64,000 nt of DNA. Origin: Candidatus Methanoperedenaceae archaeon GB37 (GTDB lineage Archaea; Halobacteriota; Methanosarcinia; Methanosarcinales; EX4572-44). The notes below the pieces were generated by a model. The model was not told the origin of the DNA. It saw only the letters and a program-made list of their open reading frames with translations, and ran no database searches. The stretch is from positions 1,338,150-1,402,149 of the forward strand of contig LR991653.1 in NCBI GenBank assembly GCA_905171695.1, given 5' to 3'. A program made the translations under genes and the position numbers. Positions 5,611 to 59,290 of the stretch are shown here, in pieces (position 1 is the first letter of the stretch; every line of letters starts with the position of its first letter).

Positions 5611-6766
5611 TGCTGTGTTGACCAAATGAGAAGATTTATTCGTATTCTTAATAATAAAATTATAAAAATAAGTAAATTTTATGGTATTGGATTTATTATC
5701 ACTATCAGGAGATTATTAACTCAAGAAATGAAACATATAAGATGGGGTAAAAAATTCGAAGATAAGAGAGACTGGAAGTAATATAACGGGAAGTAATATA
5801 ACGGGAAGTAATATAACGGGAAGTAATATAACGAGACGTTGGTCAGACGTGGAGAACTCTACCTCTCATTCGGTTTTCTGGATAGTTGGGATGATGAACT
5901 TGCTATAGATGAATGCGGGCAAAAGAGGAGCACCTTTCTCATACCCAGATCAGTTCGTTGCTTTTATGGGATTTATATATTCGATATTTCATATTCCCTA
6001 CAGGCAAATGGAAGGATTCTTGAGGAAACTTTCAGGTTTAGTTTCCCGAGACATAACAGCGGATTACACGACTTTATTCAAACGTATATCAAAAATGAAC
6101 TTTGATCTCCCAGAGACGATCTCGGAAGAAGAAGACGATATAGTAATAGCCGTAGATCTATCTGGTGTAAAGGTTACAAATCGTGGAGAGTGGATGAGAG
6201 AAAAATGGAGAGTGTACATGGGAGGGATCAAGGTACATATAGCAGTAGATATCAGCACTAAAGAGACTCTGGCTATTGAAGTAACAGATGAGACCGTGTA
6301 ACTGAGAGTGAAAAACTCGATAATCTTATAGATCAGGGAGGGGAGAACATAATATAGGAGGTAAGAAAATAAAACGTGTTTTGGGAGACGGTTGTCATGA
6401 CGATCGAGATTGCTTCAATACCCTGGATAAAAAGAAGATAGAATCTGGAATAAAAACACGAATTAATCCAAGTACGAGGCCGAGAAGACCGCCATACAGA
6501 GCTAAACGTGTTAGAGAAAAGAGAGAACTTGGTGACTACAAAGGTTGACGAGGCAAATATGAATATGGCAAACACCGGATCGTAGAAAGCGTACTCTCCG
6601 CTGTTAAAAGAATATTTGGCGAGATAGTGAGAACGACCAGCATCGAGGGAATCTTCAAAGAAGCAAAAATGAAGTTTAATTTGCTACAATATATTGTTGA
6701 ACTACGTATAGATTTAAAGAGAGTAAGAGAGGAAGTCAGAAAACTAAAGATTTATTCAACACAGCA
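5611..6766 (+). mobile_element. Degraded IS5/IS4-type IS copy (copy C) inserted into fragment B
   Basis: Ends are TGCTGTGTTGACCAAAT (5611) and TTATTCAACACAGCA (6752-6766). The interior encodes broken pieces homologous to the 7007-7729 transposase (LVRRGELYLSFGFLDSWDDEL; GKRGAPFSYPDQFVAFMGFIYSIFHIPYRQMEGFLRKLS...IVIAVDLSGVKVTNRGEWMREKW) with stops and frameshifts. Confidence 0.7.
5774..5833 (+). repeat. Perfect 4 x 15-bp tandem repeat (GGAAGTAATATAACG) inside the degraded transposase 5' region
   Basis: Read directly: units at 5774-5788, 5789-5803, 5804-5818 and 5819-5833. The unit corresponds to the W-K-E-Y-N codons of the intact homologue (KRNWKEYNEKLVRRGEL) but carries a TAA. Confidence 0.95.
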
Positions 6767-7784
6767 GCATTTTATGCTGTGTTGAACAATTAGCTGGATG
6801 GGGTATATCTTCAGGTAATTGTTTCTCTGAGAATGTAAGTTTAAACACTTATGAGCATGTTGTAGAAGATGAATTTCATCTTTACTTCTTGAAATAAAGC
6901 TTCTGTAGATCTTGCTCTGCATGTCTCTCCAAATACTCTTTTAACACCAGAGAAGAAACTCTCTGTTGTCCATCTGCAGCCATACCTGTATTTATCTTTC
7001 CATCTTTCATGACCTAACTCTTTTGGGTTCTCTTACTCTCTTAGCTCTGGATGGAGAGCCTCTTGACTTAGTTGAAGAGTTACTTCTTATCTTGATCACT
7101 GGTTCTACATTATTTTCAGCAAGATAATTGAAATTCTCTCTGCTATCATAACCTCCATCACCATATACCCTACTTATCTCTCCACCTCTTCCTTTAATTT
7201 GCTTTACCAGAGGTTTTAACATCTTTCCATCACCTGTTCTTTCATCTGTTATCTTTAAGGCTAAGAGTTTCCTTGTTTTAACGTCTATAGCAATATGAAC
7301 CTTAATCCAACCCTTTCTCGTTTTCCATTTATGTCTGATCCACTCTCCTCTATTCGTTATCTTCATACCAGACGAATCTATTGCAACTACAAGATCTTCT
7401 CCAAGATTACTAGAGAGTTCAAAGTCTAGTTTCCTCAACCTCTTACAAACAGTGGAATAATCAGCTACCTTTAACTCAGGTATATATTCTGATAATTTCC
7501 TCAAAAATCCTTCCATTTGTCTTAATGGAAGGAAAGCTACATGCAAGAAAGCTAGAAAACACATAAAGGTTCGAGGAAACCTGAAAGGTCTGCCAACCTT
7601 CCCCTCATTCATCCTATTTAATTCTTCATCCCAGTTCTCAAGGAAATCCAATGAGATATAGAGTTCTCCCCTCCGCACAAGTTTTTCATTATATTCCTTC
7701 CAATTTCTCTTACTCTGCATCCCAATCATCCCTCCTGTAAATGAGAAATACAGGAAGGAAACTTAAGAGTTATTCAACACAGCA
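6767..7784 (-). mobile_element. IS5/IS4-type IS copy (copy A), most complete, about 1 kb
   Basis: Terminal inverted repeats with core TGCTGTGTTGAA (6775-6786) and TTCAACACAGCA (7773-7784). It contains the transposase ORF at 7007-7729. Confidence 0.8.
6841..7729 (-). pseudogene. DDE transposase (IS4/IS5 superfamily) with a 1-nt frameshift near its C-terminus
   Basis: The 240-aa ORF reads MIGMQSKRNWKEYNEKLVRRGELYISLDFLENW...LPLRQMEGFLRKL...VVAIDSSGMKITNRGEWIRHKW...YGDGGYDS and ends ...KRVRS*. The conserved tail GHERWKDKYRYGCRWTTESFFSGVKRVFGE...YNMLISV continues in the +1 frame to 6841. Confidence 0.75.
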
Positions 7785-13315: not shown

Positions 13316-13394
13316 TTGGCTAACGTTCTGCGGATAAAAGAAGTTGCCGAAGGCAATTTGGACGAAGCGTAGCGAAGCCTTTTATTAGATGATG
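13316..13394 (-). repeat. Long-form attC-like structured repeat (E5), decayed copy
   Basis: About 90% identical to 14323-14408 over TAACGTTyTGCGGATAAAAGAAGTTGCCGAAGGCAATTTGGrCGAAGCGyAGCGAA. Relative to that copy it lacks 7 nt (CCGCTGT), which removes half of one stem arm. Confidence 0.7.
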
Positions 13395-13410: not shown

Positions 13411-14259
13411 TCAATAGCCTCCAAAGAATCTTATAAAATCAATAAACCAATGAAATGTAATAGCAGTCTCTAAATTTCGTTTATATTGTAAAAATGCCAT
13501 CGGCAATCCAAATAAAAAACTGGTAGATATTAGCATAAATAGAGCACCTGGTATATTATGTATCCATAATTCTGGAAAGTGAATTAAACTGTGTGGAACT
13601 ATACCAAAGAAAAAACTAATTATAACTGAGTATTTCCTCTCAACCTTCCCTTCCAATAAATAAAATATGAAATTCATAGTAAAAAACCTAAATATAATCT
13701 CTTCAGAGATTCCTGGTGCTAAAGCTAAAAAACCTGCACTAAATATGTTTGTCCATTCAGCCTCACCTAAAGTCAGTCTAAAATAGATGTAATTTATTAA
13801 TGCAAAAGGTAATGCAACTATAAGACCTATTAAAAATGACTTAAATAATGATTTATACTTCTGTAATATGAGTAATGACTTGTTTCTATTACTTCCACCC
13901 GATAATAAACTACCTCCAAGAAATGCAACAAATGTTACAATAGAGTTAATTACTACTGTGAATATGTCTGTTTGTTGAATAAAACTAAAATAACTTATAC
14001 CCGATAACAATATTCCAAGCGCAATATATCTTAAACTCAACCACTTAAATTTCTTATAAATTACTATTAAAGCAAGACAAAATATATAATATTCTGTCCA
14101 TGTCCAGGCTCTATATGTAAACCCAGAATCCTGTTTACTTAGTGTATGGACAATTGAAATTATGTATATTAAAACAAATATGGTGAACAAAAGTATGGTG
14201 TATATAAAATATTTCTTGAAATTATTATTCATATCTTTATTTAAAACAACGCTTCTCAT
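13411..14259 (-). CDS. CPBP-family intramembrane glutamic endopeptidase (CAAX protease/Abi-like)
   Basis: 282 aa, polytopic. It has the three CPBP motifs: GISEEIIFRFF (EExxxR), FGIVPHSLIH (FxxxH) and ITFHWFIDF (HxxxD/N). Confidence 0.75.
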   Translation of the reverse strand: MRSVVLNKDMNNNFKKYFIYTILLFTIFVLIYIISIVHTLSKQDSGFTYRAWTWTEYYIFCLALIVIYKKFKWLSLRYIALGILLSGISYFSFIQQTDIFTVVINSIVTFVAFLGGSLLSGGSNRNKSLLILQKYKSLFKSFLIGLIVALPFALINYIYFRLTLGEAEWTNIFSAGFLALAPGISEEIIFRFFTMNFIFYLLEGKVERKYSVIISFFFGIVPHSLIHFPELWIHNIPGALFMLISTSFLFGLPMAFLQYKRNLETAITFHWFIDFIRFFGGY

Positions 14260-14322: not shown

Positions 14323-14408
14323 GTCATCTAACGTTTTGCGGATAAAAGAAGTTGCCGAAGGCAATTTGGGCGAAGCGCAGCGAAATCTTTTATCCGCTGT
14401 TATATGAC
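14323..14408 (-). repeat. Long-form attC-like structured repeat (E4)
   Basis: Minus-strand reading: GTCATATAAC-A-GCGGATAAAAG-(38 nt incl. TTGCCTTCGGCAA hairpin)-CTTTTATCCGC-AAAAC-GTTAGATGAC. It has a perfect 11-bp stem pair, and the outer boxes are 9/10 complementary. Confidence 0.8.
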
Positions 14409-16363: not shown

Positions 16364-16504
16364 GAAGATCTCCGTAACAGCCTCTTTTTTAATCTGCTTA
16401 GAGATAAAGCATAGGGGCAGGGCATGAAAAAGAGAGGGGGTTAGGGTGTGACTGAGGGGGAACGATCGGGTTTTGATCGGGTTTTATACTTCCCAGGCAG
16501 AGGT

Positions 16505-17437: not shown

Positions 17438-18523
17438 ATGGAAATTAAAATTAAGGCACTTACGCCCATCTGGACTGGTGGAGTGGAAGGCAAACCAGAC
17501 AGATTGCATACGACAAGCATCATTGGCAGCATGCGTTGGTGGTACGAGGTCGTTGTTAGGGGCCTTGGAGGGTATGCGTGTGATCCGTCGAGCGAAAAGA
17601 GATGTGAATTGTCGGGTAAGGAAAAGACACGTGAGGAAAGGCTTGCTAAGTTGTGCCCGGCATGTTATCTGTTTGGATGTGGGGGATGGAAAAGAAGATT
17701 TCGGTTAGAGGTTCAGAGTAATACCTCTGTTCCTTTTCAATTGGCCACTTTGGAAAGTAAGAACAAATTCAATCACTGGTGGCTTTCGCAGATTTTTGAA
17801 GATTCGCGAGGAACGAATTTACCATTTGGAGAGATATCATTGTCTTTAAATGGGGATGATGACGTGATTGATCAGGTTAAAGCTCTACTCTCTATCATGG
17901 TAAATATTGGTGGAATCGGTGCAAAAACTCAATATGGGTATGGTCAATTCGATTGGGACGATAAAATAGAATTAAAAAATGCGATTAACACAATTCGCCA
18001 GTTCTTATCAGGAAATATTTTTAAAAGCGGTTCAAACAAAGATAAATGGTATTCACTGACTAATTTTTGGTATTACAAATTGTCCATAACGTCTGACAAT
18101 GGGTTGGTGAACAAATTTAAAAATGCAAACTTGATTGGCAATGGAAATATGCCCTCGGATTATTTGCCTGTTTCGTTCGACATTCGCTATAAAATGCCAA
18201 GTTCTGGGGATGGTACTGGATTAAGGAGTGCATATTATTCATTTTGTAGGCATTCCATGTCAAAAGAAGACGCAAAACAAAAAACAAGATCATTATTTGG
18301 AACACTTGAAAATGATAAAATCGGAAGCAGGATTTTTGTAAGTCATCTTTTCAGGAGGAGAAACATTGATAATAATCATCATCTGAAAGTTTGGGGATTT
18401 ACTGACGATTCGGTTGGAAAAGTTGTTGGTGATGAATTAAAGAACATTTTTGGATTGGATAAACCCCCTTCTATAGTAACTGGAAAAGAGCTTATCAACT
18501 ACTCAAGGGGTGAAGTCCAATGA
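17438..18523 (+). CDS. cmr1: Type III RAMP protein, Cmr1-like (Cas7 group)
   Basis: 361 aa with IKALTPIWTGGVEGKPDRLHTTSIIGSMRWWYEVVVRGLGG, a Cys cluster ending CPACYLFGCGGW, and the Gly-rich GGIGAKTQYGYGQF. Confidence 0.75.
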   Translation: MEIKIKALTPIWTGGVEGKPDRLHTTSIIGSMRWWYEVVVRGLGGYACDPSSEKRCELSGKEKTREERLAKLCPACYLFGCGGWKRRFRLEVQSNTSVPFQLATLESKNKFNHWWLSQIFEDSRGTNLPFGEISLSLNGDDDVIDQVKALLSIMVNIGGIGAKTQYGYGQFDWDDKIELKNAINTIRQFLSGNIFKSGSNKDKWYSLTNFWYYKLSITSDNGLVNKFKNANLIGNGNMPSDYLPVSFDIRYKMPSSGDGTGLRSAYYSFCRHSMSKEDAKQKTRSLFGTLENDKIGSRIFVSHLFRRRNIDNNHHLKVWGFTDDSVGKVVGDELKNIFGLDKPPSIVTGKELINYSRGEVQ

Positions 18524-19767
18524 ATTATGATTATTGCTCGCATCTCACGAAGGAACAAAACCAAACCATTGAAAAAATATTGCGTCTAGAAAATGAAATA
18601 AAACAGGATAAACAGATAAAACAACAAAAAGAAACCGAAGTCGGAAGGCTACGAAAAGAATTATTATCACAAAACCCGCATTTGTTCTATCACGTTATAG
18701 CAGTGTTGAATAATTCATTAAAAGATAATTTACGCTCCACATGGCAAACGGGAAATATCAATATAAAATTGAACAATTACCATATCGATGAAATTATATC
18801 TCCATCAATCAACATATCCGTACTTCCAAAATACTCTTTTCTAATCCAATTCAAATTTACACTCGAAAAACCTTATATCTCACGTGATGAACAGGATTTT
18901 TACATCATAGACAATCCTATCCGCAAAGACAGGGTCTTTGGTCTTCCCTATATTACTCCCTCCTCATGGAAGGGAAGCCTACGGGCCGCACTGTGGCAAA
19001 ATGGACATAAAGAAGACGATGTCCAGATCAATCGAATATTTGGAAATAAACGAGGGATAGAAGAGCATACTGAACTCAAAGCCGGGCGATTGCATCTGTT
19101 TCCCACATTCTTTGATAGAATCGGTCTTGAGATAATAAATCCTCATAACAGGGAGAGACGGATTGTTGAGTATCCGATTCGTATCGAGGCCGTTCCGGGT
19201 GGTACATCGGGTATATTCACCCTTTTATATGTTCCATTCGATTTGATTGGGAAGAATGAAAAGGAGTTTAATAATCAGATCTCAAAAGATGTATGGATAA
19301 TTGCGCAGGGATTGAAAGCAATGTTCAGAGATTATGGCTTCGGTGCAAAGACTTCCAGTGGATTCGGTATTGCAAAACCAGAATTTACCGAAGGAAAACT
19401 CGTTCTGAAGGTCGAGGGCATAGACATCAACCAAAAAGAGGAGGCGACCATCCAAGAACCGGAGGACGGGTTTAAAAAATATCTTAATAGCGATGGGATT
19501 GTGAAAGAGGAGTTTAAAGGGAGTGGCGACGCTGGCCTTCTCAGCAACAATGAGTATAGCGAAACGGGTGAAAAATACGGCGGCGGCAGTCTTACCGAGT
19601 TCAAAAAGTTCAGGCGATGGTATGGCCGTTATGGTGAGAAATGGCAACAACAGTTAAAGAATTCTCATGCCGAATGGCCTATCTGGTGGTTTGAAAGCTT
19701 TGACGAGCTGGTGAATGTTGCGACGGAAATAAAAGAATCACTACTTTCCAAGGAGGCTGCGCGATGA
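18520..19767 (+). CDS. cmr6: Type III RAMP protein, Cmr6-like (Cas7 group) with N- and C-terminal extensions
   Basis: 415 aa with FGLPYITPSSWKGSLRAALW...INRIFG and the G-rich loop YGFGAKTSSGFG. It overlaps its neighbours by 4 nt at both ends (operon coupling). Confidence 0.7.
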   Translation: MNYDYCSHLTKEQNQTIEKILRLENEIKQDKQIKQQKETEVGRLRKELLSQNPHLFYHVIAVLNNSLKDNLRSTWQTGNINIKLNNYHIDEIISPSINISVLPKYSFLIQFKFTLEKPYISRDEQDFYIIDNPIRKDRVFGLPYITPSSWKGSLRAALWQNGHKEDDVQINRIFGNKRGIEEHTELKAGRLHLFPTFFDRIGLEIINPHNRERRIVEYPIRIEAVPGGTSGIFTLLYVPFDLIGKNEKEFNNQISKDVWIIAQGLKAMFRDYGFGAKTSSGFGIAKPEFTEGKLVLKVEGIDINQKEEATIQEPEDGFKKYLNSDGIVKEEFKGSGDAGLLSNNEYSETGEKYGGGSLTEFKKFRRWYGRYGEKWQQQLKNSHAEWPIWWFESFDELVNVATEIKESLLSKEAAR

Positions 19768-22451
19768 CTCCTGACCTTTCAGTTCTGAAGGAAAATAAGG
19801 AAGTCCTCCTCGCAGAGATGGCCGCCTGGCTGCATGATATGGGGAAGTGTAGCGATGAGATGATAGAAAAACAGGCTTTGGATTGTCCATCATCACCCAC
19901 ATTTCAATCCAATAGTGCATATAAAACCGCTTTTTCTTATCTACTGAATGGTAATAATCATAATATTAATTTGTTAGGCGAAACAGTAACCTTTAAAGAC
20001 CTCGTTGAAAAGGGGATGCCTAGGGCAATAAAGGATAGTAGTATTCAATTATCGCTAATTAAATACTTGGGTCGGTGTCATGCTGCTGCGCACATCGAAA
20101 AAGAAGGACAAGCAGATAAAAAGCAGACGGTGAATGATACAAGATTGAGTTCTCCCTTTGGAAATGAAACGGAAGTATTAGTACGTCTTACAGATAAGTT
20201 GAAAGCTTTGCCCTTTGATAAAATAGTCAACAGGGAGGAATTCCTGCCTATTTTGAAAGAAACATTCAAAAACGCACCTGGAGACACGGAAAGACCAATA
20301 AACGAGGTTGATCTGTGGAGCTGGTCCAGCATAGTCGCTGCTCTTTACAAATCTGCACTGGCAGGGGCACTTCTTGGTAACAAACCCAAACCAAATGATT
20401 TGAAGTGGCGGTTGTTGGCCATAAGAATTGATTCCGATAGGATTCTTGGCGATGTGGCGAAGATTCCAGTATTGCTTGCCAGAAAGAAATGGATTACCGA
20501 AGGGTTAGATAATGTTAAAGAACTGATTGAAGAAGAATATCCTCTTGGAAACGAGGTTTACAGGGATGAGAGCGGAAGTATTTTCGTTGTGCCGGACATC
20601 CCGAGTCTATTGAAACTTAAAGAAAATGCGGATAGTTCTGAAAAGACCTTGGAAGATTTAATCTCCAAAAAGTTAGGATTTGAAGGAGAGATTGTTGTAA
20701 CGCCTTCGTTATCTGAACACTGGTGGGGTCAGAATCCTAGTGGAAGACCTGATCCTACGAAAGATAAGATCCCACCGATTGGAGAGATCTTTCAGGAAAA
20801 ACCATATTCACCACCGGACCCAGAAAAGGTTAAGGAATGGTGGCGGGATGTGGACAATACAGAGATTTGCACGATTTCCTGGCTGAGACCTCAGGGAAAA
20901 AAAGAAGGAGCTTTGAGAAAATCTTCAGATTACTGGGCAAAAAAGGTTCGGGGACGATCTGAAGAATGGTATAAGGACAGGAGCAAAACTATATGGATAG
21001 ATGAGGTGGCAGATAAAAACGGCAGAATATGTCTCATCACCGGCAAACTGGACATATCAGGATGGTTAAAACCTAACGGTCATGTGAGGACCCTGCTTGT
21101 TAAGGCTCCAGATGGTAATTCCAGTCAAGTCATTCAGAAAACCCCTTCATTCGCTCGCCTCAGACGTGTCTGGGAAACAACAAAGACGTTCTGGGAGGAA
21201 GTCGAAGAAGATTTTGAGAAAACTGTCGGCAGGGTAGAAAAAAGATTGGTTATTACTGGCTCTGTAGATGATCTATCCAAAAATAAGCTTTTTAAAAACA
21301 ATGTGTATGAGATAGATATCGAAAAAACAAGGGTAAGTGTTTTCTATTCTGGAAATGGTCGGTTTATTGTCGTTGAAAATCTTGAACGATTGGCCCGTAA
21401 GATGGGTTATTCAAAGAACGATGATGACTATTTAGTGTACATTCAACAAGAATTAAACGATAAAGAAGTCAGAATATATAATCCAGACGGTAATAATAGA
21501 AATAAGCACATTGTACTAATAAAAATGTTGAGGGTCGAGCCGATAGAGGATAATTTCATTCCTGTGATCCCTATCTTCTCTGAGCCCAGTCTATTCATGG
21601 CAATCGTACCTGCCAACAAGGCTATGGACATCGTAAAAAACATCAATAAAAAATATGAAATAGAAATGGATAAAGTACGAAACCGTCTCCCTCTTAATAT
21701 CGGATTGACCTTTGCCAGATCTCATACGCCGATAATGGCTTTAATGGAGTCGGGGTGGAAGATGATAAACGCATCTCTAAAGGAGGAAATCAGGATACTC
21801 AATGCAGACTCTGAAAAATGCGATGATAAATATATCTTAAATTTCGAGAACGGGATAACCTGGCGTGTTCAGGGGAAAATGGGGGATGGAATAACAGAAG
21901 ATGTTTGGTATCCGTATTTTTATGTGGATGGAAATCCGAACGATAGAAATATGGTTTTTAAAGGTCCGAAGGGGTGGCTAGTGCATGTATCAGAATTAAA
22001 AAAAGGGGATGCCGTCAAAATCACACCTTCCTCTTTTGATTTCGAGTTTCTGGATTCTGCATCCCGGAGGTTTGAGATATCTTATGATGAAACTGGAAAA
22101 CGGCGTGATAATACAAAATCTAACCGTCCATATTTGATTGATAAATTTGATGACTTCGAGCGTATCTGGAAAGAGATGACAAATAATTTAGCAGCCACTC
22201 AAATAAAGAACGTCATAGGCCTTATTGAAACCAAACGGGAGGAATGGAATGTTTCCAGAGATGATGAAACATTCAAACAATTCGTCAATGATGTTCTCCG
22301 CAATGCCAACTGGAAGCATGGCACCCCTCAAAACCTCGATGAGATCACAAACATAGCAGTAAGTGGAGAGTTAAAAGATATTATCGAACTTTACATGAAT
22401 ATACTGAAGGCAAAAGGAGATTATATGAACGATACAGAGGTGAATACATGA
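19764..22451 (+). CDS. cas10: Cas10 large subunit with N-terminal HD domain and no GGDD cyclase motif
   Basis: 895 aa with HD motif AAWLHDMGK at residues 20-28. The conserved post-palm segment is RLPLNIGLTFARSHTPI. Where GGDD is expected about 40 aa upstream, the sequence reads SEPSLFMAIVPA. No GGDD occurs anywhere in the protein. Confidence 0.8.
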   Translation: MTPDLSVLKENKEVLLAEMAAWLHDMGKCSDEMIEKQALDCPSSPTFQSNSAYKTAFSYLLNGNNHNINLLGETVTFKDLVEKGMPRAIKDSSIQLSLIKYLGRCHAAAHIEKEGQADKKQTVNDTRLSSPFGNETEVLVRLTDKLKALPFDKIVNREEFLPILKETFKNAPGDTERPINEVDLWSWSSIVAALYKSALAGALLGNKPKPNDLKWRLLAIRIDSDRILGDVAKIPVLLARKKWITEGLDNVKELIEEEYPLGNEVYRDESGSIFVVPDIPSLLKLKENADSSEKTLEDLISKKLGFEGEIVVTPSLSEHWWGQNPSGRPDPTKDKIPPIGEIFQEKPYSPPDPEKVKEWWRDVDNTEICTISWLRPQGKKEGALRKSSDYWAKKVRGRSEEWYKDRSKTIWIDEVADKNGRICLITGKLDISGWLKPNGHVRTLLVKAPDGNSSQVIQKTPSFARLRRVWETTKTFWEEVEEDFEKTVGRVEKRLVITGSVDDLSKNKLFKNNVYEIDIEKTRVSVFYSGNGRFIVVENLERLARKMGYSKNDDDYLVYIQQELNDKEVRIYNPDGNNRNKHIVLIKMLRVEPIEDNFIPVIPIFSEPSLFMAIVPANKAMDIVKNINKKYEIEMDKVRNRLPLNIGLTFARSHTPIMALMESGWKMINASLKEEIRILNADSEKCDDKYILNFENGITWRVQGKMGDGITEDVWYPYFYVDGNPNDRNMVFKGPKGWLVHVSELKKGDAVKITPSSFDFEFLDSASRRFEISYDETGKRRDNTKSNRPYLIDKFDDFERIWKEMTNNLAATQIKNVIGLIETKREEWNVSRDDETFKQFVNDVLRNANWKHGTPQNLDEITNIAVSGELKDIIELYMNILKAKGDYMNDTEVNT

Positions 22452-23407
22452 ACAGTGAAAAGAAAAAGCTGTACACCCACCAGCGGTTTGTAATGTTCGC
22501 TCTTGACCCGATTCATATTGGGGCTGGTGGATACCGTCTTGGTCGGGTTGACAACAGTATTGTAAGAGAAATGGGGACGAATTTACCGAAGATTCCGGGT
22601 ACAAGCCTTGCAGGTGCCGCGCGAAGTTATGCTTCGATGAGATATGGGAAGCCTGAAGCCGCAGGCCAGCATAAACGGTTTATAGGTGAAAAAGAGAAGT
22701 GCCCGATAATCTACACCTTTGGAACCGCAACGGAAACCGGTGGTGAGGCAGGCAAGGTCAGCTTTGGAGATGCAAGGATTTTATTCTTCCCGGTGCCTTC
22801 AGTGGCGGGTCCTGTATGGGTCACCACAAAGGAGATTCTTGAGGAAGTTGGGTTCACCGTTAATGGTGGCGATGTCGGTGAGGAAACTGTGCTGTCCAAT
22901 CTTTCCTGGAGTAAAGAGCAAATAAACCTCGGCTGGTTATCGTTGAATCATAACTGGGGCTTAACCATTTCTCCACCCGAAGAAATCAAAGACAAAAAGG
23001 GATGGAAAGCAATAGAAAACAGGATTGTCCTCATTTCTCAGAAATTGTTTTCAGAGGTTGTCAACAGCAATTTGGAGGTGCGAACATCGGTTGCCATAAA
23101 CCCCGAGACCGGAGCTGCTGAAGACGGTGCCCTGTTCACATATGAAGCATTACCTCGAGCTACCTGGTTATGGCATGATATCATCGAGGATGATTACAAA
23201 CAAAGTTTCCCGAAAACGGAAAATCAATTCAAAGATAACAAGGAAAACAGTGGGGATGCTCTCGGGGAGATATGGGAGCGACCGTTGGATGTTGTGAAAG
23301 CCGGTTTAAGATTAATCGAATACCTTGGAATCGGTGGCATGGGGACACGCGGTTTTGGGAGGATGAAAAACATCTGTGATTGGGAGGTTGGCAGTAATGA
23401 ATCTTGA
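22448..23407 (+). CDS. cmr4: Cmr4-like Cas7 backbone subunit
   Basis: 319 aa with ALDPIHIGAGGYRLGRVDNSIVRE...LPKIPGTSLAGAARSYA and the C-terminal GIGGMGTRGFGRM glycine-rich loop. Confidence 0.8.
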   Translation: MNSEKKKLYTHQRFVMFALDPIHIGAGGYRLGRVDNSIVREMGTNLPKIPGTSLAGAARSYASMRYGKPEAAGQHKRFIGEKEKCPIIYTFGTATETGGEAGKVSFGDARILFFPVPSVAGPVWVTTKEILEEVGFTVNGGDVGEETVLSNLSWSKEQINLGWLSLNHNWGLTISPPEEIKDKKGWKAIENRIVLISQKLFSEVVNSNLEVRTSVAINPETGAAEDGALFTYEALPRATWLWHDIIEDDYKQSFPKTENQFKDNKENSGDALGEIWERPLDVVKAGLRLIEYLGIGGMGTRGFGRMKNICDWEVGSNES

Positions 23408-23762
23408 CCTTGAAGCTACGAGAACCTCCCAGGAAATAATAACGAAGACGGGAGGAAATAGATCCAGTGAGGTTGAAAACCTGATTACTAAGACGCTAGG
23501 GGTTCTTCAGGAGAACGGCATTTATGCATGCACACTCTATCTGAACTCCAGAACGAGTGAAGCGGAGAAGAAGATTGGCCCTGTCATCCACGAGGAACTT
23601 CTTAAAATGACGAAACGACTTGTTAAGACACCAATAAAAAACGATGATTACGAATATCTTACGGACGAAATCTGTTCAGACATTGACCTACTTATACTAA
23701 CAAAACAGCTCTGGGAGCAGACATTGACCTATGCTAGATACGGGGCGAAAGCAAGGACGTGA
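23397..23762 (+). CDS. cmr5: Cmr5-like small subunit (Cas11)
   Basis: About 121 aa and predicted helical (..VENLITKTLGVLQENGIYACTLYLNSR..). It lies between cmr4 and cmr3. The ATG at 23397 overlaps the cmr4 stop region; the track ORF starts at 23376. Confidence 0.6.
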   Translation: MNLDLEATRTSQEIITKTGGNRSSEVENLITKTLGVLQENGIYACTLYLNSRTSEAEKKIGPVIHEELLKMTKRLVKTPIKNDDYEYLTDEICSDIDLLILTKQLWEQTLTYARYGAKART

Positions 23763-23766
23763 TATT

Positions 23767-24660
23767 ATGACATGGACCCCCTATCTTGTAAGTTTCAAAT
23801 TGCGCTCACCAGTTCATATCGGATGGAAAAAAATTGGAAACTTGCAAGTAACACGCCCTTACATTACCGGAAAAACATTATGGGGTGCGCTGACAGCAAG
23901 ACTTGTTAGAGATGAAGGGAATAGCAATTATAGTGAGATTGGAAAACAAGTAGATGATGAATTACGCTTCACTTACTTTTATCCATCAACTAGTCCAGAT
24001 AAGGTCAATCTATGGCCATGGGATAAAAAGAACGAGTTTGCCTGGAAATTTCTGGGTAGTTATATCAGTACTGCAATAGAAGGCGATACCGCCGAGGAAG
24101 GGAGCCTCCATGAGGTTGAGTATATATCCCCAACAACTCGTGATGGAAACCCGGTCTTTCTTGTTGGGTATGTGATTGAAAAGAAGGATTGCCACTTGAA
24201 ATGGAAGGAAGCTTTAAAGCGGATTCAAATTGGCGGTGAGAGAGGATATGGATGGGGACGAACTGAGTTATTGAGCGATCCCAAACCAGTAGAAGAGTGC
24301 TTTGGTTATAGAATCGATAATTCCGAGATTTCTCCAATGATTTCTATTCCCAAAGATAATGTGATTCTTGCACATGCAAAAACCGATTTCCTAAAATGCA
24401 TAGGATATATTGAACCATTTCTGGGGAGAGAAACAAATGATTCGGATGGCGTTGGTGGAAAAATACCGCACCCTATAGGTGGAAAAATACCGCACCCTAT
24501 AGGTGGAAAAATACCGCACCCTATAGGTGGAAAAATACCGCACCCTATAACATGTTACACACCAGGGAGTAAAGTTGTGGCCGATACAACATTCGTTATT
24601 CAACCGAAAGGAGTATGGGAAAAAACGAGGTGCAATAGTTCGGGAGGTTCCAATCCATGA
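23767..24660 (+). CDS. cmr3: Cas5-group RAMP (Cmr3/Csx10-like) with an internal tandem octapeptide repeat
   Basis: MTWTPYLVSFKLRSPVHIGWKKIGNLQVTRPYITGKTLWGALTARLVR..., IGGERGYGWGR glycine-rich loop, then (GGKIPHPI)x4. It is the last gene of the operon. Confidence 0.65.
   Translation: MTWTPYLVSFKLRSPVHIGWKKIGNLQVTRPYITGKTLWGALTARLVRDEGNSNYSEIGKQVDDELRFTYFYPSTSPDKVNLWPWDKKNEFAWKFLGSYISTAIEGDTAEEGSLHEVEYISPTTRDGNPVFLVGYVIEKKDCHLKWKEALKRIQIGGERGYGWGRTELLSDPKPVEECFGYRIDNSEISPMISIPKDNVILAHAKTDFLKCIGYIEPFLGRETNDSDGVGGKIPHPIGGKIPHPIGGKIPHPIGGKIPHPITCYTPGSKVVADTTFVIQPKGVWEKTRCNSSGGSNP
24454..24549 (+). repeat. Perfect 4 x 24-bp in-frame tandem repeat (GGTGGAAAAATACCGCACCCTATA)
   Basis: Read directly: units at 24454-24477, 24478-24501, 24502-24525 and 24526-24549, with no mismatch. 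Each unit encodes GGKIPHPI. Confidence 0.97.
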
Positions 24661-24803
24661 CTCTGCGGACACTCCGTGTCCTTGCCTCGCCTTCGGCTCG
24701 GTCATATAACATGCGGGTATGCGGTTCGGGCTTACGCCCTCACCCAAATTGCTCCGCTCCCGTTGGTCGCTACGCAACTTCGCATACCCGCAAACCGTTA
24801 TAC
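24661..24803 (+). repeat. Long-form attC-like structured repeat (E1) immediately 3' of the type III-C operon
   Basis: CTCTGCGGACACTCCGTGTCCTTGCCTCGCCTTCGGCTCG-GTCATATAAC-AT-GCGGGTATGCG-(58 nt incl. CACCCAAATTGC)-CGCATACCCGC-AAACC-GTTATAC. It has the same architecture and conserved blocks as 14323-14408(-), but the 11-bp stems carry different, mutually compensating sequences. Confidence 0.8.
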
Positions 24804-24824
24804 CAACAATAAGTTTACAGAACC

Positions 24825-24852
24825 CCCAATCCCCATCTTCTTATATGGGTGG
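24825..24852 (+). repeat. Right copy of the direct repeat bracketing the type III-C island
   Basis: CCCAATCCCCATCTTC (24825-24840), TTATA, TGGGTGG (24846-24852). Compare 17265-17302. Confidence 0.8.
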
Positions 24853-24943
24853 TGTGTCTCGATATCTCTTTTATTGGTCTCATAGTTTATGTACCAAAAC
24901 AGATATACTATGATTGTCATCCAGCCGTCTTGTATTCGATTGT

Positions 24944-25049
24944 GCGAGGGTAACCAAGTCGGCCAAAGGTGCAGGACTTAAGTGGTACTGGTGGTATCGG
25001 AGTTATCCTGTCTCGAAGGAGTTCATGGGTTCAAATCCCATCCCTCGCA
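24944..25049 (+). tRNA. tRNA-Leu (anticodon UAA) with a 22-nt intron after position 37
   Basis: Acceptor GCGAGGG/CCCTCGC; anticodon stem CAGGA (24972-24976)/TCCTG (25006-25010); loop CTTAAG + intron TGGTACTGGTGGTATCGGAGTT (24983-25004) + A; long variable arm; T arm ATGGG-TTCAAAT-CCCAT. No CCA is encoded. Confidence 0.8.
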
Positions 25050-25094
25050 TCAAAAACAGAAAATTTTCTGAATTGTGATGGATGTGGTCTCTTG

Positions 25095-25634
25095 ATGGTT
25101 GACGATGATACTCTCTTTGGCGAGGTTGTTCGGGTGGATGGTGTGAATGTGTATCTTGTGAGGTCGGTCTCTCGGTCTTCTCGTGAGCTTGGTGTTGGCG
25201 AGTTCGTGGGAGTTGAGTGTGGAGGGGATGTTGTGGTCTCTGTTCTCACTGGCGTGGAACGGTCGATACCTGAGGATGTGGTATCGATGATCTCTCTTGA
25301 GATGGAGTCGAAGTATCTCCCTTACAGTTCTGAGCTGGATAGTAGCTATTATCGTCTCTTTGGGCTTGGGCTTCTCTCCCGGAGTGGTGTTCAGCATGGT
25401 CTTCGTGTGGCTCCGCGGCTTCGCAGCAGGGTGTGGCGATTGGATGATGATACGATCAGGAAGTTTCACCTACCTCATGGTCGTGCTAACATCTCTTACT
25501 TCAATCGGTATCGTGAAGCACTCGGGGATGATCTCCTGCTTGCGATCGTTGATGAGCTCTGGGCTCTTCTGCCAGAGGCTCGGAGGATGCTTGCGCCGGT
25601 CAGGAAGTACCTTAAGGGTGGTGGTGCACTCTGA
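25095..25634 (+). CDS. Hypothetical protein resembling a stand-alone HerA-type N-terminal barrel domain
   Basis: From the internal Met (the track ORF start at 24969 lies inside the tRNA). FGEVVRVDGVNVYLV...GEFVGVECGGDVVVSVLTGVER parallels the N-terminal region of the downstream ATPase. Confidence 0.4.
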   Translation: MVDDDTLFGEVVRVDGVNVYLVRSVSRSSRELGVGEFVGVECGGDVVVSVLTGVERSIPEDVVSMISLEMESKYLPYSSELDSSYYRLFGLGLLSRSGVQHGLRVAPRLRSRVWRLDDDTIRKFHLPHGRANISYFNRYREALGDDLLLAIVDELWALLPEARRMLAPVRKYLKGGGAL

Positions 25635-25642
25635 GCGGGTGT

Positions 25643-27223
25643 GTGATCGGGCTTGTCTTGACGCACACGCGTGAGGGCTTCTCTTTTGTAACGAAGTACT
25701 CACTTGCATCTGGCGAGTTTGTCTCTTATCGGTCTGGGAGTGATCGCGTCCTTGCCCGTGTGAGTCATACTGAGCCCTTGCGGGATTATCCTGTGGAGTT
25801 CCTGCTCGATCCCGAGGTTGACGCTGAGGATGTTGCACTCTTTTATGGGCTTGATGCAGATGATTATCGGTTTTATCGTGTGCATGCACGGGTTGTGGGC
25901 TACTTTGACAGGCGGGTTAACGAGTTCATAAACCCGCGTATGATGCCGCTCTCAGGGACGAGGATAGAGCGAGTGGATGAGACGATCCTCTCGGATGTGA
26001 ACCGGGTCTCTGCAGACGAGGTTGGCTCGGCTCACATCGGCACGATACTTGGCACGAAGACCGATGCTGTTCTCTCTGTTCGTGAGATGGTGAGCCAGCA
26101 TCTCTCAATCATCGCTGCAACGGGCGCAGGCAAGTCCTATACCGTTGGCGTGATCGTGGAAGAGTTGATCTCGGCAAAGAACATGGCGTCGGTATTGATC
26201 TTCGATCCACACGGCGAGTACAGTGTGCTAAGCGAGATTCAGAACGATCAGAGCTTCTGGGAAGAGGGGTATCGACCAAGGGTGCGGATCGTTAAGCCGG
26301 ACCAGATAAAGATCAGACTCGGTGATCTCACGCCTGGCGATTTTATCAGTATCATGGACGATGGTAACATGTCAGAGAAGATGAAGACGCTCTTTGTGGA
26401 GGCTTATGAGAGTTTGAAGAGGGATGAGAGGAGCCTCACACGAAGTTTCACCAGGAACGAGCTTCGTGAGACTATTGAGGGCTTAAGTGATGGCAAGAAT
26501 GAGCTGAGCATTGCAGGCCTCCTCTGGCGCTATGATAGGATGGTGCGTGAGAAGATCTTCGATGACTTTCGGAGCATCCCACTCCGCGAGTACTTCCAGC
26601 CAGGGCTTCTCACCATAATGGATGTCTCAGGCATAGGGGAGTGGAAACAGCAGTTGATCGCAACGATTCTCCTCCGCCAGCTCTTCGATTCTCGGGAGGG
26701 CACAGATAATGAGCGTTACAGTGAAGAGTTCCGACCTGAGCGTTATCTACCCTATCCTGTCTTCCTGATACTTGAAGAGGCGCACAGGTTTGCACCGCAG
26801 AGTGGAGATGCGAAATCGAGACAGATACTCAAGAAAATCCTATCAGAGGGTCGAAAATTTGGAATTGGCGTATGCATGGTCTCACAGCGCCCAAGTAAAC
26901 TCGATTCAGATGCGCTCTCTCAGTGTATGACACAGATCACGATGCGAATCATCAATCCAGCAGATCAAAAGCAGATAGGAGAGAGCATCGAGTCGGTGAG
27001 CAGAGACCTGCTCGAAGAGCTACCAGCCCTCACACGGGGGCAGGCGATCGTAAGCGGTGTTGCCATAAACACACCGATCATCGTTGATATCAGAAAGCGG
27101 CGCACAAGAGAGATAGGTGGGACGAGCAAGGACGCACCGCAACTCTGGAGAGAAGAGATGCAAGAGAGGCGATATGAGACGGTGGAGAGACGGCCAAGCT
27201 ACGAACTCGATGTGGGAGTATAA
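25643..27223 (+). CDS. HerA/DUF87-type P-loop ATPase
   Basis: 526 aa with Walker A IIAATGAGKSYTV, Walker B/sensor VFLILEEAHRFAP, and GRKFGIGVCMVSQRPSKLD, typical of HerA/FtsK-like DUF87 ATPases. Confidence 0.75.
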   Translation: MIGLVLTHTREGFSFVTKYSLASGEFVSYRSGSDRVLARVSHTEPLRDYPVEFLLDPEVDAEDVALFYGLDADDYRFYRVHARVVGYFDRRVNEFINPRMMPLSGTRIERVDETILSDVNRVSADEVGSAHIGTILGTKTDAVLSVREMVSQHLSIIAATGAGKSYTVGVIVEELISAKNMASVLIFDPHGEYSVLSEIQNDQSFWEEGYRPRVRIVKPDQIKIRLGDLTPGDFISIMDDGNMSEKMKTLFVEAYESLKRDERSLTRSFTRNELRETIEGLSDGKNELSIAGLLWRYDRMVREKIFDDFRSIPLREYFQPGLLTIMDVSGIGEWKQQLIATILLRQLFDSREGTDNERYSEEFRPERYLPYPVFLILEEAHRFAPQSGDAKSRQILKKILSEGRKFGIGVCMVSQRPSKLDSDALSQCMTQITMRIINPADQKQIGESIESVSRDLLEELPALTRGQAIVSGVAINTPIIVDIRKRRTREIGGTSKDAPQLWREEMQERRYETVERRPSYELDVGV

Positions 27224-27326
27224 AAGAACAACCAGACCACATGCTACCCAATGCAGAAAACCCGTGTTAAGCGAAATTGCCTCAGCAAAAGTAGGTTCTA
27301 TGAAGTCTTAGAGAAGGGTACAAAAT

Positions 27327-41854: not shown

Positions 41855-44800
41855 ATGAAGATGCAGCATCTCTCTCTCGGGCTTCTCCTCCTCGGAATCA
41901 TCACAACCAGCGCGGTCCCATCAACCCAAGTCACCAATACCAGCAACCAGCCCACACCATTTCTGATCTACGGAGAGGTATTCTATGAGAACAACACCCA
42001 GGTTGACGCTCCAAGGGTTGTTGTGACGAACCTCAATACGAGCAGGGAACTTGTTGCTGAAAACCACAGCGGAGAAAACTTCTACCAGGTCATAACCACT
42101 ACCTCAGAGATACACCCCGGCGATCTACTGCTCATCAGCGCGGAGAAGGATGGAAGACCGGTTGGAAGTGTGAATCGCACGATAACAATGAATGAGAGTC
42201 GTGCTGGAGTTCTCATCGTGGATATCAACCGCGGACTCCCTGATCTTCGGGTGATAGGAATATTCCCACCCCAGTGTATATTCGACAGCAGGAATAACAC
42301 GGTCAATGCCACGATAGCAAACAACGGAACCACCCCGGCAGGAGGATTCAATGTGAGCCTTGCTGTGAATGGCGATCTCTTTGAGAGAGCACGTATCGAG
42401 TCACTTAATACGGGGTGCACCGAGAATCTCACCTTCAACTGGACGCCAGTAGAGAGAGGGAACCATACTCTGACCGTGACTGCGGATTCTGACGGTGAGA
42501 TCGATGAGTCGGATGAGATGAATAATGCTACGAGCGTGTCGGTACTCGTTGGCGCACCCGATCTCACTGTGACAGATATAAGCGTCAAAGGCTACGTGCT
42601 TGACCCAGAGTACCCGGATGAGACCGTGCCAGTCTTCGAGTACCCGAATAATGTAACGGCCACGATTCTGAACAGAGGGCGTCTGAGTGCTGATGCCATG
42701 GTTGAGTTCTGCAGTGAGCTTAACATCTCAAGCACACCTATAATCAGGTTTTTTACGGGTTATGGAAACTCATCAAACGATACCATCACACAGCCAAACG
42801 CCAGCAGGACAAGGGTTCATTTTATCAGTGTGAACCCGGGAGCATACTCGTATGTTAACATATGCGATGAAGAGAACAATACCGTGGAGACCATTGGTAA
42901 TCACAGGTCTGATTACTGGAGCAACTGGGTGGATGGCGATACCCTGCGGGTGCACGCCCGCATCGCCAGTACATCAGATTACATCTCTTTTGTTATAGAT
43001 AAATACGAATATGTGTTTGCAGATGCAAGCGTATCGATAGCTGCTAACAAATCCGTGAATATTACCAGAGTATGGCACGCCGACCCCCCGAGATTCACGA
43101 ATGAAACAGGGACCAGATACGTGATGATACCCTGTTACACACTCTCAGTGATTGCAGACCCTGCTGACACGCTCTGCGAACTCGATAAATCAAACAACAC
43201 CTACAGAAGAGAAGCGAGACTATACTACCCCTACGACTTCACGATCACGAACATAACATTTTCACCAGAGCATCCAAGAGAGGGCGATCCTGTGACCATT
43301 GATGCAGCCATGAGAAATAATGGTTTCAGAAGCATAGATGCGAGGGTTGCCTTCTACATCGATGATAGCATTCTTGCGGGAGAGAGTGTATATTTCAGGG
43401 CGAATAAGACAGAACATGTCACGGCAATATGGAATGCGCTACCTGATATAAACCACCTGAGATGGGAGCACAACATAACAGTCGTGGTCGATCCAGAGAA
43501 CGAGATAGAGGAGCAGGATGAGGAGAATAACAACCTCTCCAGAGTGATGAATATAACACTCCCAAACCTCACGATCACAGAGATAACAACCGATCCCGAA
43601 GAGCCAATCATCGGCGATACCATCGCTGTGACGGCTACCATCAGAAATGATGAGAATAGGACTGCAAATACCACGGCGTGGTTCTGCGAAGAGAACAGCA
43701 GCATACGGCTCACTGGCAGTGTCAACAGACCAAAATCACGGGTAATTGAATTTGATGAAGTCATCACGCACGAGGATGCGATCATGATGAGGGCGTACTG
43801 TACCATACATGGTGGGGTTGACGCTAGTGGTGGTACTCTCAAGGTCTATCTCAACGATCGCCAGGTGCTGACGTGTACAGGTGGAAATTTCAACTGGTCT
43901 GGATGGACATCGTGGACTTCTGGAAGCACCAAAATGATAAATATAACAGTAAAAGGAGATAACGTGCCGGACAACGACTTCCATGTTGACTACAGCATAG
44001 ATAAGTACCAGGCAGTATTTGGAAACACAAGTATAGTCATACCTGCCAACGAGTCCGTGAACCAGTCGATGAACTGGAGAGTGACTCAGAAAAATCCAAG
44101 ATTGATCGTTACTACGAGCAATGCCACAAACTCAACAGATGTGTCTGTGAGCGGGACCGATATTGCAGTTCAAGACCTATCGATCAGTGATGATCTCCTG
44201 TGGGATGGGGATGTTGTGAATATCACTGCTGTGATCGCCAATTTCGGTCGAATGAATGCAAGCAATATCACGGTCGCATTCTATGATGTGCCCCTCGATG
44301 CTGGCAATCAGACGGTGCTCATCGCCAAAAGAGATATCGCATCCCTCGATGCTGGTGAGTCGAGAGATATCACAGTGCCATGGATTGCATCCCTGAAGGT
44401 TGGAAGGGATATCTCATACAACCACACCATACAGGTCAAAACAATGCCAGAGGATAGTTACATTGAGGATAATCCAGAAAATAATACAATATATTCGAAT
44501 ACGATTATGGTAAAGCGTTCCCGTGATTTTTCGCTCACCGACATCTCTTTTTCCATGAACAATGAGACGCTTGATCCAGTGAATCTGAGCATAGGTGAGC
44601 TTTTGACCATAAACGCCACGATAGATGCCACGAATCTTGCCAGTTGCGGCGGAAGTGTTGAGGTAAGCTGCTATCTGGATAACACTCTGATCAACATAAC
44701 AACGGTCTCATTCCCTGCTGGCAATGAAACCGTAGATGCAGAATTTGAGTGGAATGTACGTGCTCATGGAAATCACACCATCACCGTGATCGCAGATCCT

Positions 44801-54209: not shown

Positions 54210-55182
54210 GATTATAGGAAACAGGTCAGAGTTGGTATTTCTGTATGATATAAAAGATGCAAATCCAAACGGCGACCCATTGGATGAGAACAAGCCAAGA
54301 ATAGATGAAGAAACTGGGATAAATGTCGTAACAGACGTTCGACTGAAAAGGACAATACGAGATTATCTCATGAATTTTAAAAATCAGGAGATATTTGTTA
54401 GAGAGATAACAGATGATGAAGGCAATATCCAAGACGCCAAACTAAGAGCAAAAGATTTTTTAAATGGTGTATCTGACTTGGAGAGTAAGGGCTTTAATGA
54501 GCAAAAAGAGATAATCAAAAACAAAATAATCAGTACCTGTATTGATGTGCGTCTATTCGGAGCTACAATACCTCTTGATTTGACAATAAAAGACGGGAAG
54601 AAGTTAAAAAGTGTTACAGGGTCCATCACTCTCACAGGTCCTGTTCAATTCAGAATGGGCAGGTCATTGCACAGAGTTGAGATGAAGCATATTAAAGGTA
54701 CTGGTGCCTTTGCATCGAAAGCAGGAGCAACTCAAAAAACCTTCAGAGAAGAAGACATATTACCGTATTCATTAATTTGTTTCTACGGCATCATTAACGA
54801 AAATGCAGCAAAACACACAGGATTAACAGAAGAAGATGTCAAACTACTTTTAGAAGGAATGTGGAACGGCACTAAAAATCTGATTTCACGAAGCAAAGCG
54901 GGTCAAATGTCGAGATTGCTTTTGAAAGTGAACTATAGAGAGAACGGATATCACATAGGTGATCTTGACAAACTCATCAGGATAAAAGATATTGAAAAAA
55001 TAAATCAGGAGAGTATACGTGATATTTCTGAAATTGAACTGGATGCAAGCGAACTTGTTGAAACATTGAATCGTAATAGAGATAAAATTGAAAGTGTTGG
55101 GATAAAAAGGGATGATAGAGTGAAGATCGATTTAAGTTGGTTGGACAGCACTATTCGACAAAACGAGATAATCTTTGAATAG
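54196..55182 (+). CDS. cas7: Cas7 (type I-B, Csh2/CT1132-like)
   Basis: LVFLYDIKDANPNGDPLDENKPRIDEETGINVVTDVRLKRTIRDYL is the canonical Cas7 N-terminal block. The start overlaps the cas8b stop (alternatives are 54193 GTG and 54202 ATG). Confidence 0.9.
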   Translation: MKMSEIIGNRSELVFLYDIKDANPNGDPLDENKPRIDEETGINVVTDVRLKRTIRDYLMNFKNQEIFVREITDDEGNIQDAKLRAKDFLNGVSDLESKGFNEQKEIIKNKIISTCIDVRLFGATIPLDLTIKDGKKLKSVTGSITLTGPVQFRMGRSLHRVEMKHIKGTGAFASKAGATQKTFREEDILPYSLICFYGIINENAAKHTGLTEEDVKLLLEGMWNGTKNLISRSKAGQMSRLLLKVNYRENGYHIGDLDKLIRIKDIEKINQESIRDISEIELDASELVETLNRNRDKIESVGIKRDDRVKIDLSWLDSTIRQNEIIFE

Positions 55183-55185
55183 AAT

Positions 55186-58378: not shown

Positions 58379-58548
58379 GAAGACACCGTCTCGCTCACAA
58401 TCCTATGAAATCAGTTTGAATGAGGAACAGTATACAAGAATACTGGAGAAGAGAGAAGTTATGGACGAAGTAGGAACGATCGTATTCGGACTCGATTGCG
58501 TGAGTGCGTCTTACGTCTTCGGCTATCAATCTCCAAAGGACTGAAACC

Positions 58549-59214: not shown

Positions 59215-59290
59215 AAGGGTTCTGGATGTGGAAAGGATTAATAAAGACGGAGAAGATAGTTAAATATTGCTTTACTGTTGGTGAAAAAAT

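Follow-up and report, generated by a model that had tools for sequence, protein, structure and literature searches.

Coding variable-number tandem repeats (VNTRs) of prokaryotes are in-frame tandem repeats whose copy number varies by strain and which are used in multiple-locus VNTR analysis (MLVA) typing, and contingency loci are phase-variable simple-sequence genes of Neisseria, Haemophilus and Campylobacter with units of 1-8 nt. For Cmr3, a Cas5-group repeat-associated mysterious protein (RAMP), Makarova et al. describe a second glycine-rich loop that closes the C-terminal domain (PMC3150331), with the consensus xxxxxG-phi-G and a short strand before it (PMC3727216). In the Cmr-beta complex of S. 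islandicus (SisCmr-beta), the Cmr3 loops L51-60 and L247-260 wrap nucleotides -6 to -8 of the CRISPR RNA (crRNA) tag, and a non-repetitive N-terminal stalk loop (residues 16-31) has been experimentally characterised. We searched the literature for tandem repeats within Cmr3 or Cas5 genes and found none described, which is weak evidence of absence. Here we describe a perfect four-copy tandem repeat of 24 bp inside the cmr3 gene of a type III-C operon, located in a stretch of 64,000 nucleotides (hereafter the window) from Candidatus Methanoperedenaceae archaeon GB37 (GenBank assembly GCA_905171695.1, contig LR991653.1, positions 1,338,150 to 1,402,149 of the forward strand). We regard it as very likely that this tract is a real in-frame coding minisatellite (VNTR) whose copy number varies by strain, and, taking the reading as a whole, as likely that it is also tolerated, neutral to mildly harmful and not a switch.

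Direct reading of the window gives four identical copies of the 24-bp unit GGTGGAAAAATACCGCACCCTATA at 24454-24549, and Tandem Repeats Finder reports the same interval with period 24, 4.0 copies, 100% matches and a score of 192, the maximum in the window; the perfect in-frame 4 x 24-bp repeat claimed in the initial annotation is thereby confirmed. The array comprises exactly 4.0 units, because the bases flanking it break the 24-bp period on either side. The tract and the parts of Cmr3 relevant to it are as follows.

24454-24549, + strand: four-unit minisatellite, units 24454-24477, 24478-24501, 24502-24525 and 24526-24549, encoding GGKIPHPI four times
23731-24660, + strand: cmr3 (Cas5-group RAMP, type III-C), longest open reading frame (ORF) of 309 aa; the deposited annotation starts from Met13 (23767) and has 297 aa
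24226-24261, + strand: N-terminal glycine-rich loop of Cmr3, QIGGERGYGWGR, invariant columns Q166-G176, at the end of the Pfam RAMPs match (aa 22-177)
24424-24570, + strand: C-terminal glycine-rich loop segment of Cmr3, family consensus GRETxxxxGFGGxxSxAxICWxPGS, with invariant or near-invariant G, R, F, G, C, W, P and G
24620-24625, + strand: A6 run near the 3' end of cmr3, which is A7 in the relative L001, changing the last 11 residues

The tract sits inside the coding region, 720 nt from its start, and the four octapeptides occupy residues 242-273 of 309, which bears out the earlier placement near the C-terminus of a Cas5-group effector subunit; past the array, the frame runs on into the conserved TCYTPGS...KGVWEK segment. 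No further copy of the 24-bp unit with up to 3 mismatches exists elsewhere in the 64 kb (0 matches in 100 dinucleotide-preserving shuffles), and the unit was not found in viral contigs or in GTDB representative genomes. As a possible driver of slippage, DNA secondary structure finds no support, the array folding no better than shuffled sequences (z=+0.68), and no microhomology is visible at the duplication junctions. We also considered and rejected the reading of the tract as a CRISPR (mini-)array, because its units abut without spacers; the 64-kb window holds no spaced repeat family.

To place the unit within the family, we found 944 homologues of the window Cmr3 and aligned the best 120 with the window protein (121 sequences). 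All 119 homologues outside the immediate clade carry a single octapeptide at the position of the repeat, with the family consensus F-G-G-x-x-S-x-A followed by x-I-C-W-x-P-G-S, which answers the comparison for a single unit suggested in the initial annotation. Only 21 columns of the alignment are invariant, and the Gly that opens the unit is among them; at least 90% of the sequences keep the Phe before it and the Cys, Trp and Gly after it, and the intervening Pro is invariant. The length of the loop, counted from the GRET Arg to the Cys, is also constrained: 119 of the 121 proteins have 18-21 residues there (91 of them exactly 19), whereas the 2-copy relative has 27 and the window protein 43. 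A single conserved octapeptide in a loop of constrained length indicates that the repeat reiterates a native element rather than a foreign or low-complexity insert; as judged from the alignment, it is a duplicated native, conserved and length-constrained octapeptide of Cmr3. In the outgroup P0002 the octapeptide is GGKMSHSK, and five of the last twelve nucleotides of the window unit differ from it, yielding the changes S to P, S to P and K to I; in the window lineage, the conserved F, S and A of the family have already been substituted by V, P and P. Elsewhere in the family, tandem duplications are confined to 4-5 aa present twice in 5 of the 119 other members, outside the C-terminal loop and never in more than two copies. 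The earlier remark that tandem coding repeats are unusual in the Cas5 group therefore stands, as only the window lineage has a repeat of this size among the 121 homologues. Its description of the tract as lying after the glycine-rich loop needs to be divided: it holds for the N-terminal loop, but not for the second, C-terminal glycine-rich loop (G-phi-G), since the unit starts at the invariant Gly of that very loop. The window motif there fits the published xxxxxG-phi-G consensus (PMC3727216, PMC3150331). Cmr3 has two RAMP-like halves with glycine-rich loops, GGERGYGWG in the N-terminal half and GRETxxxxGFGG in the C-terminal half of the family, the latter reading G-V-G-G here.

From Met13 onwards, the window Cmr3 is 100% identical to CAD7774006.1 of Ca. 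Methanoperedenaceae archaeon GB37 (closed PacBio genome). The source strain is Ethane37 (E37) of Ca. Ethanoperedens (GoM-Arc1), an ethane-oxidising archaeon, and the GB50 sister record (LR991654.1, GCA_905171685.1) is Ca. Ethanoperedens thermophilum E50. Alleles were collected as the 90%-identity cluster around the closest match, about nine sequences, with relatives 90-98% identical. By copy number they fall as follows.

1 copy: L004 (Logan SRR3669912; protein P0124) and P0125
2 copies: L001 (ENA), L002 and L003 (two E50 assemblies), L005 (JGI Ga0164311), P0126 and P0127
4 copies: the window alone

The copy number is therefore variable, as had been supposed, with 1, 2 or 4 copies of a 24-mer that is identical at the DNA level in every one of these alleles and flanks that are near-identical around the 1x, 2x and 4x arrays. 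The 2-copy allele occurs in at least five assemblies, including that of the Ethane50 strain, and the 1-copy allele in two. Strains E37 and E50 share 98% average nucleotide identity (ANI), and the window aligns to the E50 genome at 97.2% identity over 14 kb, where the sole large indel in cmr3 is a 48-bp insertion; other short perfect repeats (9 bp x 2.4 at 29127 and 11 bp x 2 at 16464) have equal copy number in the window and E50. These observations agree with a coding VNTR, namely head-to-tail units at 100% identity, copy-number polymorphism between strains with conserved flanks, and a unit length divisible by three. The contingency-like character proposed earlier is not borne out: the 24-nt unit never shifts the frame, so that a change in copy number cannot turn cmr3 on or off, and neither an expression switch by frameshift or promoter spacing nor a short unit (about 1-8 nt) in many copies is found, the unit here being 24 nt in at most four copies. 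The first duplication would have arisen by an illegitimate event; once two identical units are present, copy number is expected to change by slippage or unequal recombination, and slipped-strand mispairing or unequal recombination between them may later have taken two copies to four, recency or homogenisation keeping the units identical.

Further changes at the 3' end of cmr3 are seen among the relatives. The allele L006 (JGI Ga0180301_10131343, 834-857) has an in-frame TAA within the repeated octapeptide (GGT GGG AGA ATA TAA CCT TCT AAA, GGRI*PSK); its loop is more ancestral, its frame after the TAA is kept to the normal stop, and it is likely a pseudogene allele at the same hotspot as the window repeat. 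L004 and the other alleles are nearly the same over about 100 nt surrounding the unit, whereas the remainder of the L004 gene has a synonymous divergence (dS) of about 0.24, which suggests that the allele moved by recombination; the cmr3 of L004 has a replaced 3' end and lacks the last ~17 aa. In L001, A7 at ~1682-1688 corresponds to the A6 of the window, and the last 11 residues, TRCNSSGGSNP, become NEVQ; either the extra A is an error of sequencing or cmr3 has a second site prone to slippage.

We modelled the window Cmr3 with AlphaFold2 (AF2) using the 121-sequence alignment, obtaining a mean predicted local distance difference test score (pLDDT) of 86.1 and a predicted template modelling score (pTM) of 0.83. 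The repeat tract is the exception in an otherwise confident fold, appearing as a low-confidence coil (pLDDT ~45) flanked by strands at model residues 215-218 and 261-264. In a control model of the single-copy P0002, the loop is an ordered beta-meander of RETN (230-233), GFGGKM (237-242) and KICY (246-249), with a pLDDT of 75-91 for the block. Foldseek matches both models to type III RAMPs, and the single-copy model has full-length matches (TM 0.45-0.56) to 275-320-aa chains of Csm/Cmr complexes and type VII Cas5, the subunit identity of the matched PDB chains (Csm4, Cmr3 or type VII Cas5) being assigned from chain length. A sequence search of the PDB with the family profile, at E up to 10, returned no match and no III-C structure. 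In the arrangement that we propose, both native junctions would be kept, the first unit following G-V-G and the last leading into TCYTPGS, which would still allow the domain and its beta-sheet to fold while 8-24 extra Gly/Pro-rich residues bulge out, so that the intermediate units would form a Gly/Pro-rich excursion from the Cmr3 loop. As a Cmr3, the window protein would be expected to contact the crRNA 5'-tag and Cas10, and its C-terminal loop is probably RNA-binding; if the loop is, as is probable, the counterpart of the type III-B Cmr3 C-terminal loop around tag nucleotides -6 to -8, extra length could weaken or alter tag binding.

The cmr3 gene is the last of a complete operon with the type III-C order cmr1-cmr6-cas10c/csx11-cmr4-cmr5-cmr3, an order that recurs in the related loci L002-L004 and L007, and all six genes are uninterrupted in the window. 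The five genes upstream of cmr3 are listed below.

17438-18523, + strand: cmr1 (Cas7-group RAMP), TIGR01894 E=9.3e-31, PADLOC Cmr1
18520-19767, + strand: cmr6 (Cas7-group RAMP), PADLOC Cmr6 PDLC00988 E=9.1e-75
19764-22451, + strand: cas10c / csx11, type III-C large subunit, TIGR02682 Csx11 E=3.9e-179, PADLOC Cas10c E=3.2e-223
22448-23407, + strand: cmr4 (backbone RAMP), TIGR02580 E=3.4e-38, PADLOC Cmr4
23376-23762, + strand: cmr5 (small subunit), PADLOC Cmr5 PDLC00984 E=2.7e-36

Cmr3 itself matches the PADLOC profiles PDLC00979 (E=2.9e-80, aa 13-299 to profile positions 1-285 of 287) and PDLC01478 (E=4.5e-78); because the former match covers aa 13-299, it spans both sides of the repeat. The curated Pfam and NCBIfam Cmr3 models, including Pfam Cas_Cmr3, do not match the window protein, in which Pfam sees the generic RAMPs domain alone (PF03787, E=2.8e-07) in the N-terminal half (aa 22-177). 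No CRISPR array lies within the 64-kb window. The operon is a mosaic between strains (window 17438-20295 compared with L003 3489-6496 and L004 87-3100): identity is 44-46% for cmr1, 80-83% for cas10c and 94-97% for cmr4, the N-terminus of cmr6 is unalignable, and the alignments suggest that the 5' half of the operon may be exchanged between strains like a cassette.

That the repeat is an artefact of assembly or polishing, with a true unit number below four, had been allowed for in the initial annotation and is barely credible given PacBio long reads and independent assemblies, even though the 4-copy state is confined to the single assembly from which the window comes. Hahn et al. (2020) sequenced the Ethane37 and Ethane50 cultures with PacBio Sequel, closed the E37 genome de novo with HGAP4 and Canu followed by polishing, and derived the 'complete' E50 genome from E50 long reads mapped onto the E37 genome. 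PacBio Sequel reads far exceed the 96-bp array in length; the E37 sequence stands on two de novo assemblers and polishing; and short-read metagenome assemblies (L001 and L005) independently show the unit twice in tandem. Mapping does resolve the copy number, because E50 reads placed on the 4-copy reference gave a clean 48-bp deletion leaving two copies, in agreement with the de novo E50 assembly (L003). The same closed GB50 genome seemed to hold a decaying operon, with cmr1 and cas10c split by 1-nt indels (L002 3645-4731 and 5972-6070), which we reject: these splits are probably consensus artefacts, because the consensus followed the E37 reference through stretches in which the real E50 allele has diverged too far for mapping (cmr1 45% identical), and users of LR991654.1 should be cautious wherever the E50 allele diverges strongly from that reference. 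A 'broken' cmr4 in L007 was likewise rejected as a lesion, the break being a scaffold gap of Ns. Both cases bear on another alternative, one that we regard as unlikely, namely that loss of function is under way, with the III-C system or cmr3 under relaxed selection, the expansion being one of several lesions of the C-terminal loop and the 4x Cmr3 crippled. Such a course would fit a loop whose length is otherwise invariant and whose unit holds an invariant Gly, the exchange of the conserved F, S and A for V, P and P, the in-frame TAA of L006 in the same octapeptide, the shortened L004, the frameshifted tail of L001, and the redundancy implied by a type I-B system and other type III-like RAMPs in the genome. 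The ratio of non-synonymous to synonymous substitution rates (dN/dS) of cmr3 points the same way at short range, being 0.6-0.8 among the closest strains versus 0.11 for the neighbouring herA and 0.14 for tyrS. However, these values come from tiny counts (4 synonymous and 12 non-synonymous differences between the window and E50), and a time lag is known to raise dN/dS when sequences have diverged very little; along the longer branch to L004, the Nei-Gojobori dN/dS is 0.33-0.37, which argues for purifying selection on cmr3. Moreover, the window operon is intact in all six genes, the two apparent lesions in L002 and L007 are artefacts, and the 2x allele, present in independent assemblies, is transcribed: in the published Ethane50 transcriptome, the 2-copy cmr3 (FHEFKHOI_01508) has 121-185 raw reads per replicate versus 132-176 for cmr4. 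Raw counts are used alone, because the published values of reads per kilobase per million (RPKM) are not proportional to counts per length for neighbouring genes.

Whether selection favours particular lengths of the loop, as in escape from anti-CRISPR proteins, recognition of the crRNA 5'-tag or adjustment to growth temperature (four copies at 37 C, two at 50 C), has also to be weighed, and we think it quite improbable. Copy number does differ between strains at 98% ANI, the near-identical patch of ~100 nt in L004 suggests movement of alleles by recombination, the operon is mosaic between strains (cmr1 45% and cmr4 97% identical), and Cmr3 loops such as the stalk loop are known as regulatory elements in type III-B. 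Yet there is no signal of selection, with three states in about nine sequences; the temperature pattern has n=2; the viral contigs searched lack the 24-bp unit; and a loop length fixed across the family argues that extra length is not generally useful. We know of no anti-CRISPR against III-C. A more specific version, in which the effector would be 'VNTR-tuned', copy number altering the grip on the crRNA 5'-tag or the docking of a viral inhibitor and slippage supplying a standing pool of effector variants, appears to us very unlikely.

A coding minisatellite in cmr3 is thus real but fairly ordinary, and the tolerated, strain-variable VNTR remains the reading that we prefer. With respect to the earlier suggestion that length variation could disable the complex, the 2x allele is widespread, intact and transcribed, which argues that at least one extra unit is tolerated; this evidence of an intact, transcribed allele in multiple samples is confined to two units. 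Judged from the sequences, the 4x allele is predicted most likely to be neutral to mildly harmful rather than a regulatory device. Several points weigh against this reading. Four copies are known from a single assembly, and no 3-copy allele was found among the relatives, so that stepwise slippage is not demonstrated. The dN/dS of 0.6-0.8, from very few substitutions, is compatible with relaxed constraint, which may act on cmr3. A low pLDDT is to be expected for the extra units, whose columns have no counterpart in any other sequence of the alignment; it means that the model is unable to place these units and is not proof of disorder. Finally, the window loop is probably the counterpart of SisCmr3 L247-260, an assignment made by motif and relative position and not by superposition.

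The window holds other repeats. A second perfect 4.0-copy tandem repeat, of the 15-bp unit GGAAGTAATATAACG, lies at 5774-5833 inside a decayed copy of an insertion sequence (IS) transposase gene, each unit containing an in-frame TAA (...DWK*YNGK*YNGK*YNGK*YNETLVRRGELY); an intact paralogue of the transposase is encoded on the minus strand at 7007-7729 (KRNWKEYNEKLVRRGELY). The presence of two such arrays, each perfect and with four copies, within 64 kb is a hint that this genome often acquires short tandem duplications. A giant ORF of 2672 aa at 41855-49873 contains diverged internal DNA repeat families (69-nt and 37-nt, spaced ~320-3700 nt) and probably encodes a repetitive surface or adhesin-like protein. 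Two 66-nt copies at 13320-13385 and 14328-14393, 92% identical and 1008 nt apart, bracket a minus-strand ORF at 13411-14259.

A type I-B operon occupies 52320-58378, with cas8b at 52320-54209, cas7 at 54193-55182, cas5 at 55186-55950 and cas3 at 55910-58378. It is followed by four ORFs (236, 677, 243 and 205 aa) that have no NCBIfam match and then by a Csx7-like type III RAMP at 62631-63488; according to the E50 annotation, cas1 and cas2 lie just past the end of the window. The region 52320-63488 may constitute a second type III-like module and may supply the array-less III-C operon with crRNAs. Immediately beyond cmr3, a G+C-rich island at 24650-27250 has a G+C content of 0.49-0.55, versus ~0.42 in the cas operon and 0.33-0.38 immediately downstream. 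It contains a tRNA gene, an unannotated ORF (~180 aa in the E50 annotation) and a HerA-like ATPase at 25643-27223, which matches DUF87/HerA and falls below threshold with anti-phage HerA models; the island may be a two-gene defence or repair module adjoining the CRISPR operon. The tRNA gene, at 24944-25049 (106 nt), presumably contains an intron, is recognised by Rfam with 48 bits and missed by ARAGORN, and overlaps the 5' end of a mechanically called ORF at 24969-25634; an intron-containing tRNA of this kind identifies its bearer as an archaeon.

The cmr3 tract offers a clean natural case of a coding minisatellite in a cas gene, and its 24-bp VNTR is usable as a strain marker for Ca. Ethanoperedens populations. 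It also provides a natural insertion series (0, +8 and +24 residues) in the second glycine-rich loop of a Cas5-group protein, which could probe the weight of this loop in crRNA-tag binding of the poorly studied type III-C, a subtype without a solved structure. Its importance would be greater if copy number changed interference or sensitivity to anti-CRISPR proteins.

Compared with described systems, the tract resembles prokaryotic coding VNTRs in its identical head-to-tail units, a length that is a multiple of three, a polymorphic copy number (1, 2 and 4) and a presumed origin by slippage or unequal recombination. Unlike the usual members of that class, it lies in a cytoplasmic CRISPR effector rather than a surface or secreted protein, and it duplicates a conserved structural motif rather than a low-complexity linker. 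With contingency loci it shares a place in a gene of a parasite-conflict system and mutation by slippage, but its unit has 24 nt, all changes are in frame and there is no on/off switching. As a Cmr3, the window protein is like those of types III-B and III-C in its profile match, in the III-C gene order with Cas10c/Csx11, and in two RAMP-like halves each ending in a Gly-rich loop, with a short strand before G-phi-G; it differs in a loop that is longer by 8 (2x) or 24 (4x) residues in the window lineage, in Val at the aromatic phi position and in Pro at the conserved Ser and Ala. Like the stalk loop of SisCmr-beta, which affects reading of the crRNA tag region, it is a lineage-specific loop of Cmr3, whereas the window loop is C-terminal and repetitive and its role is inferred.

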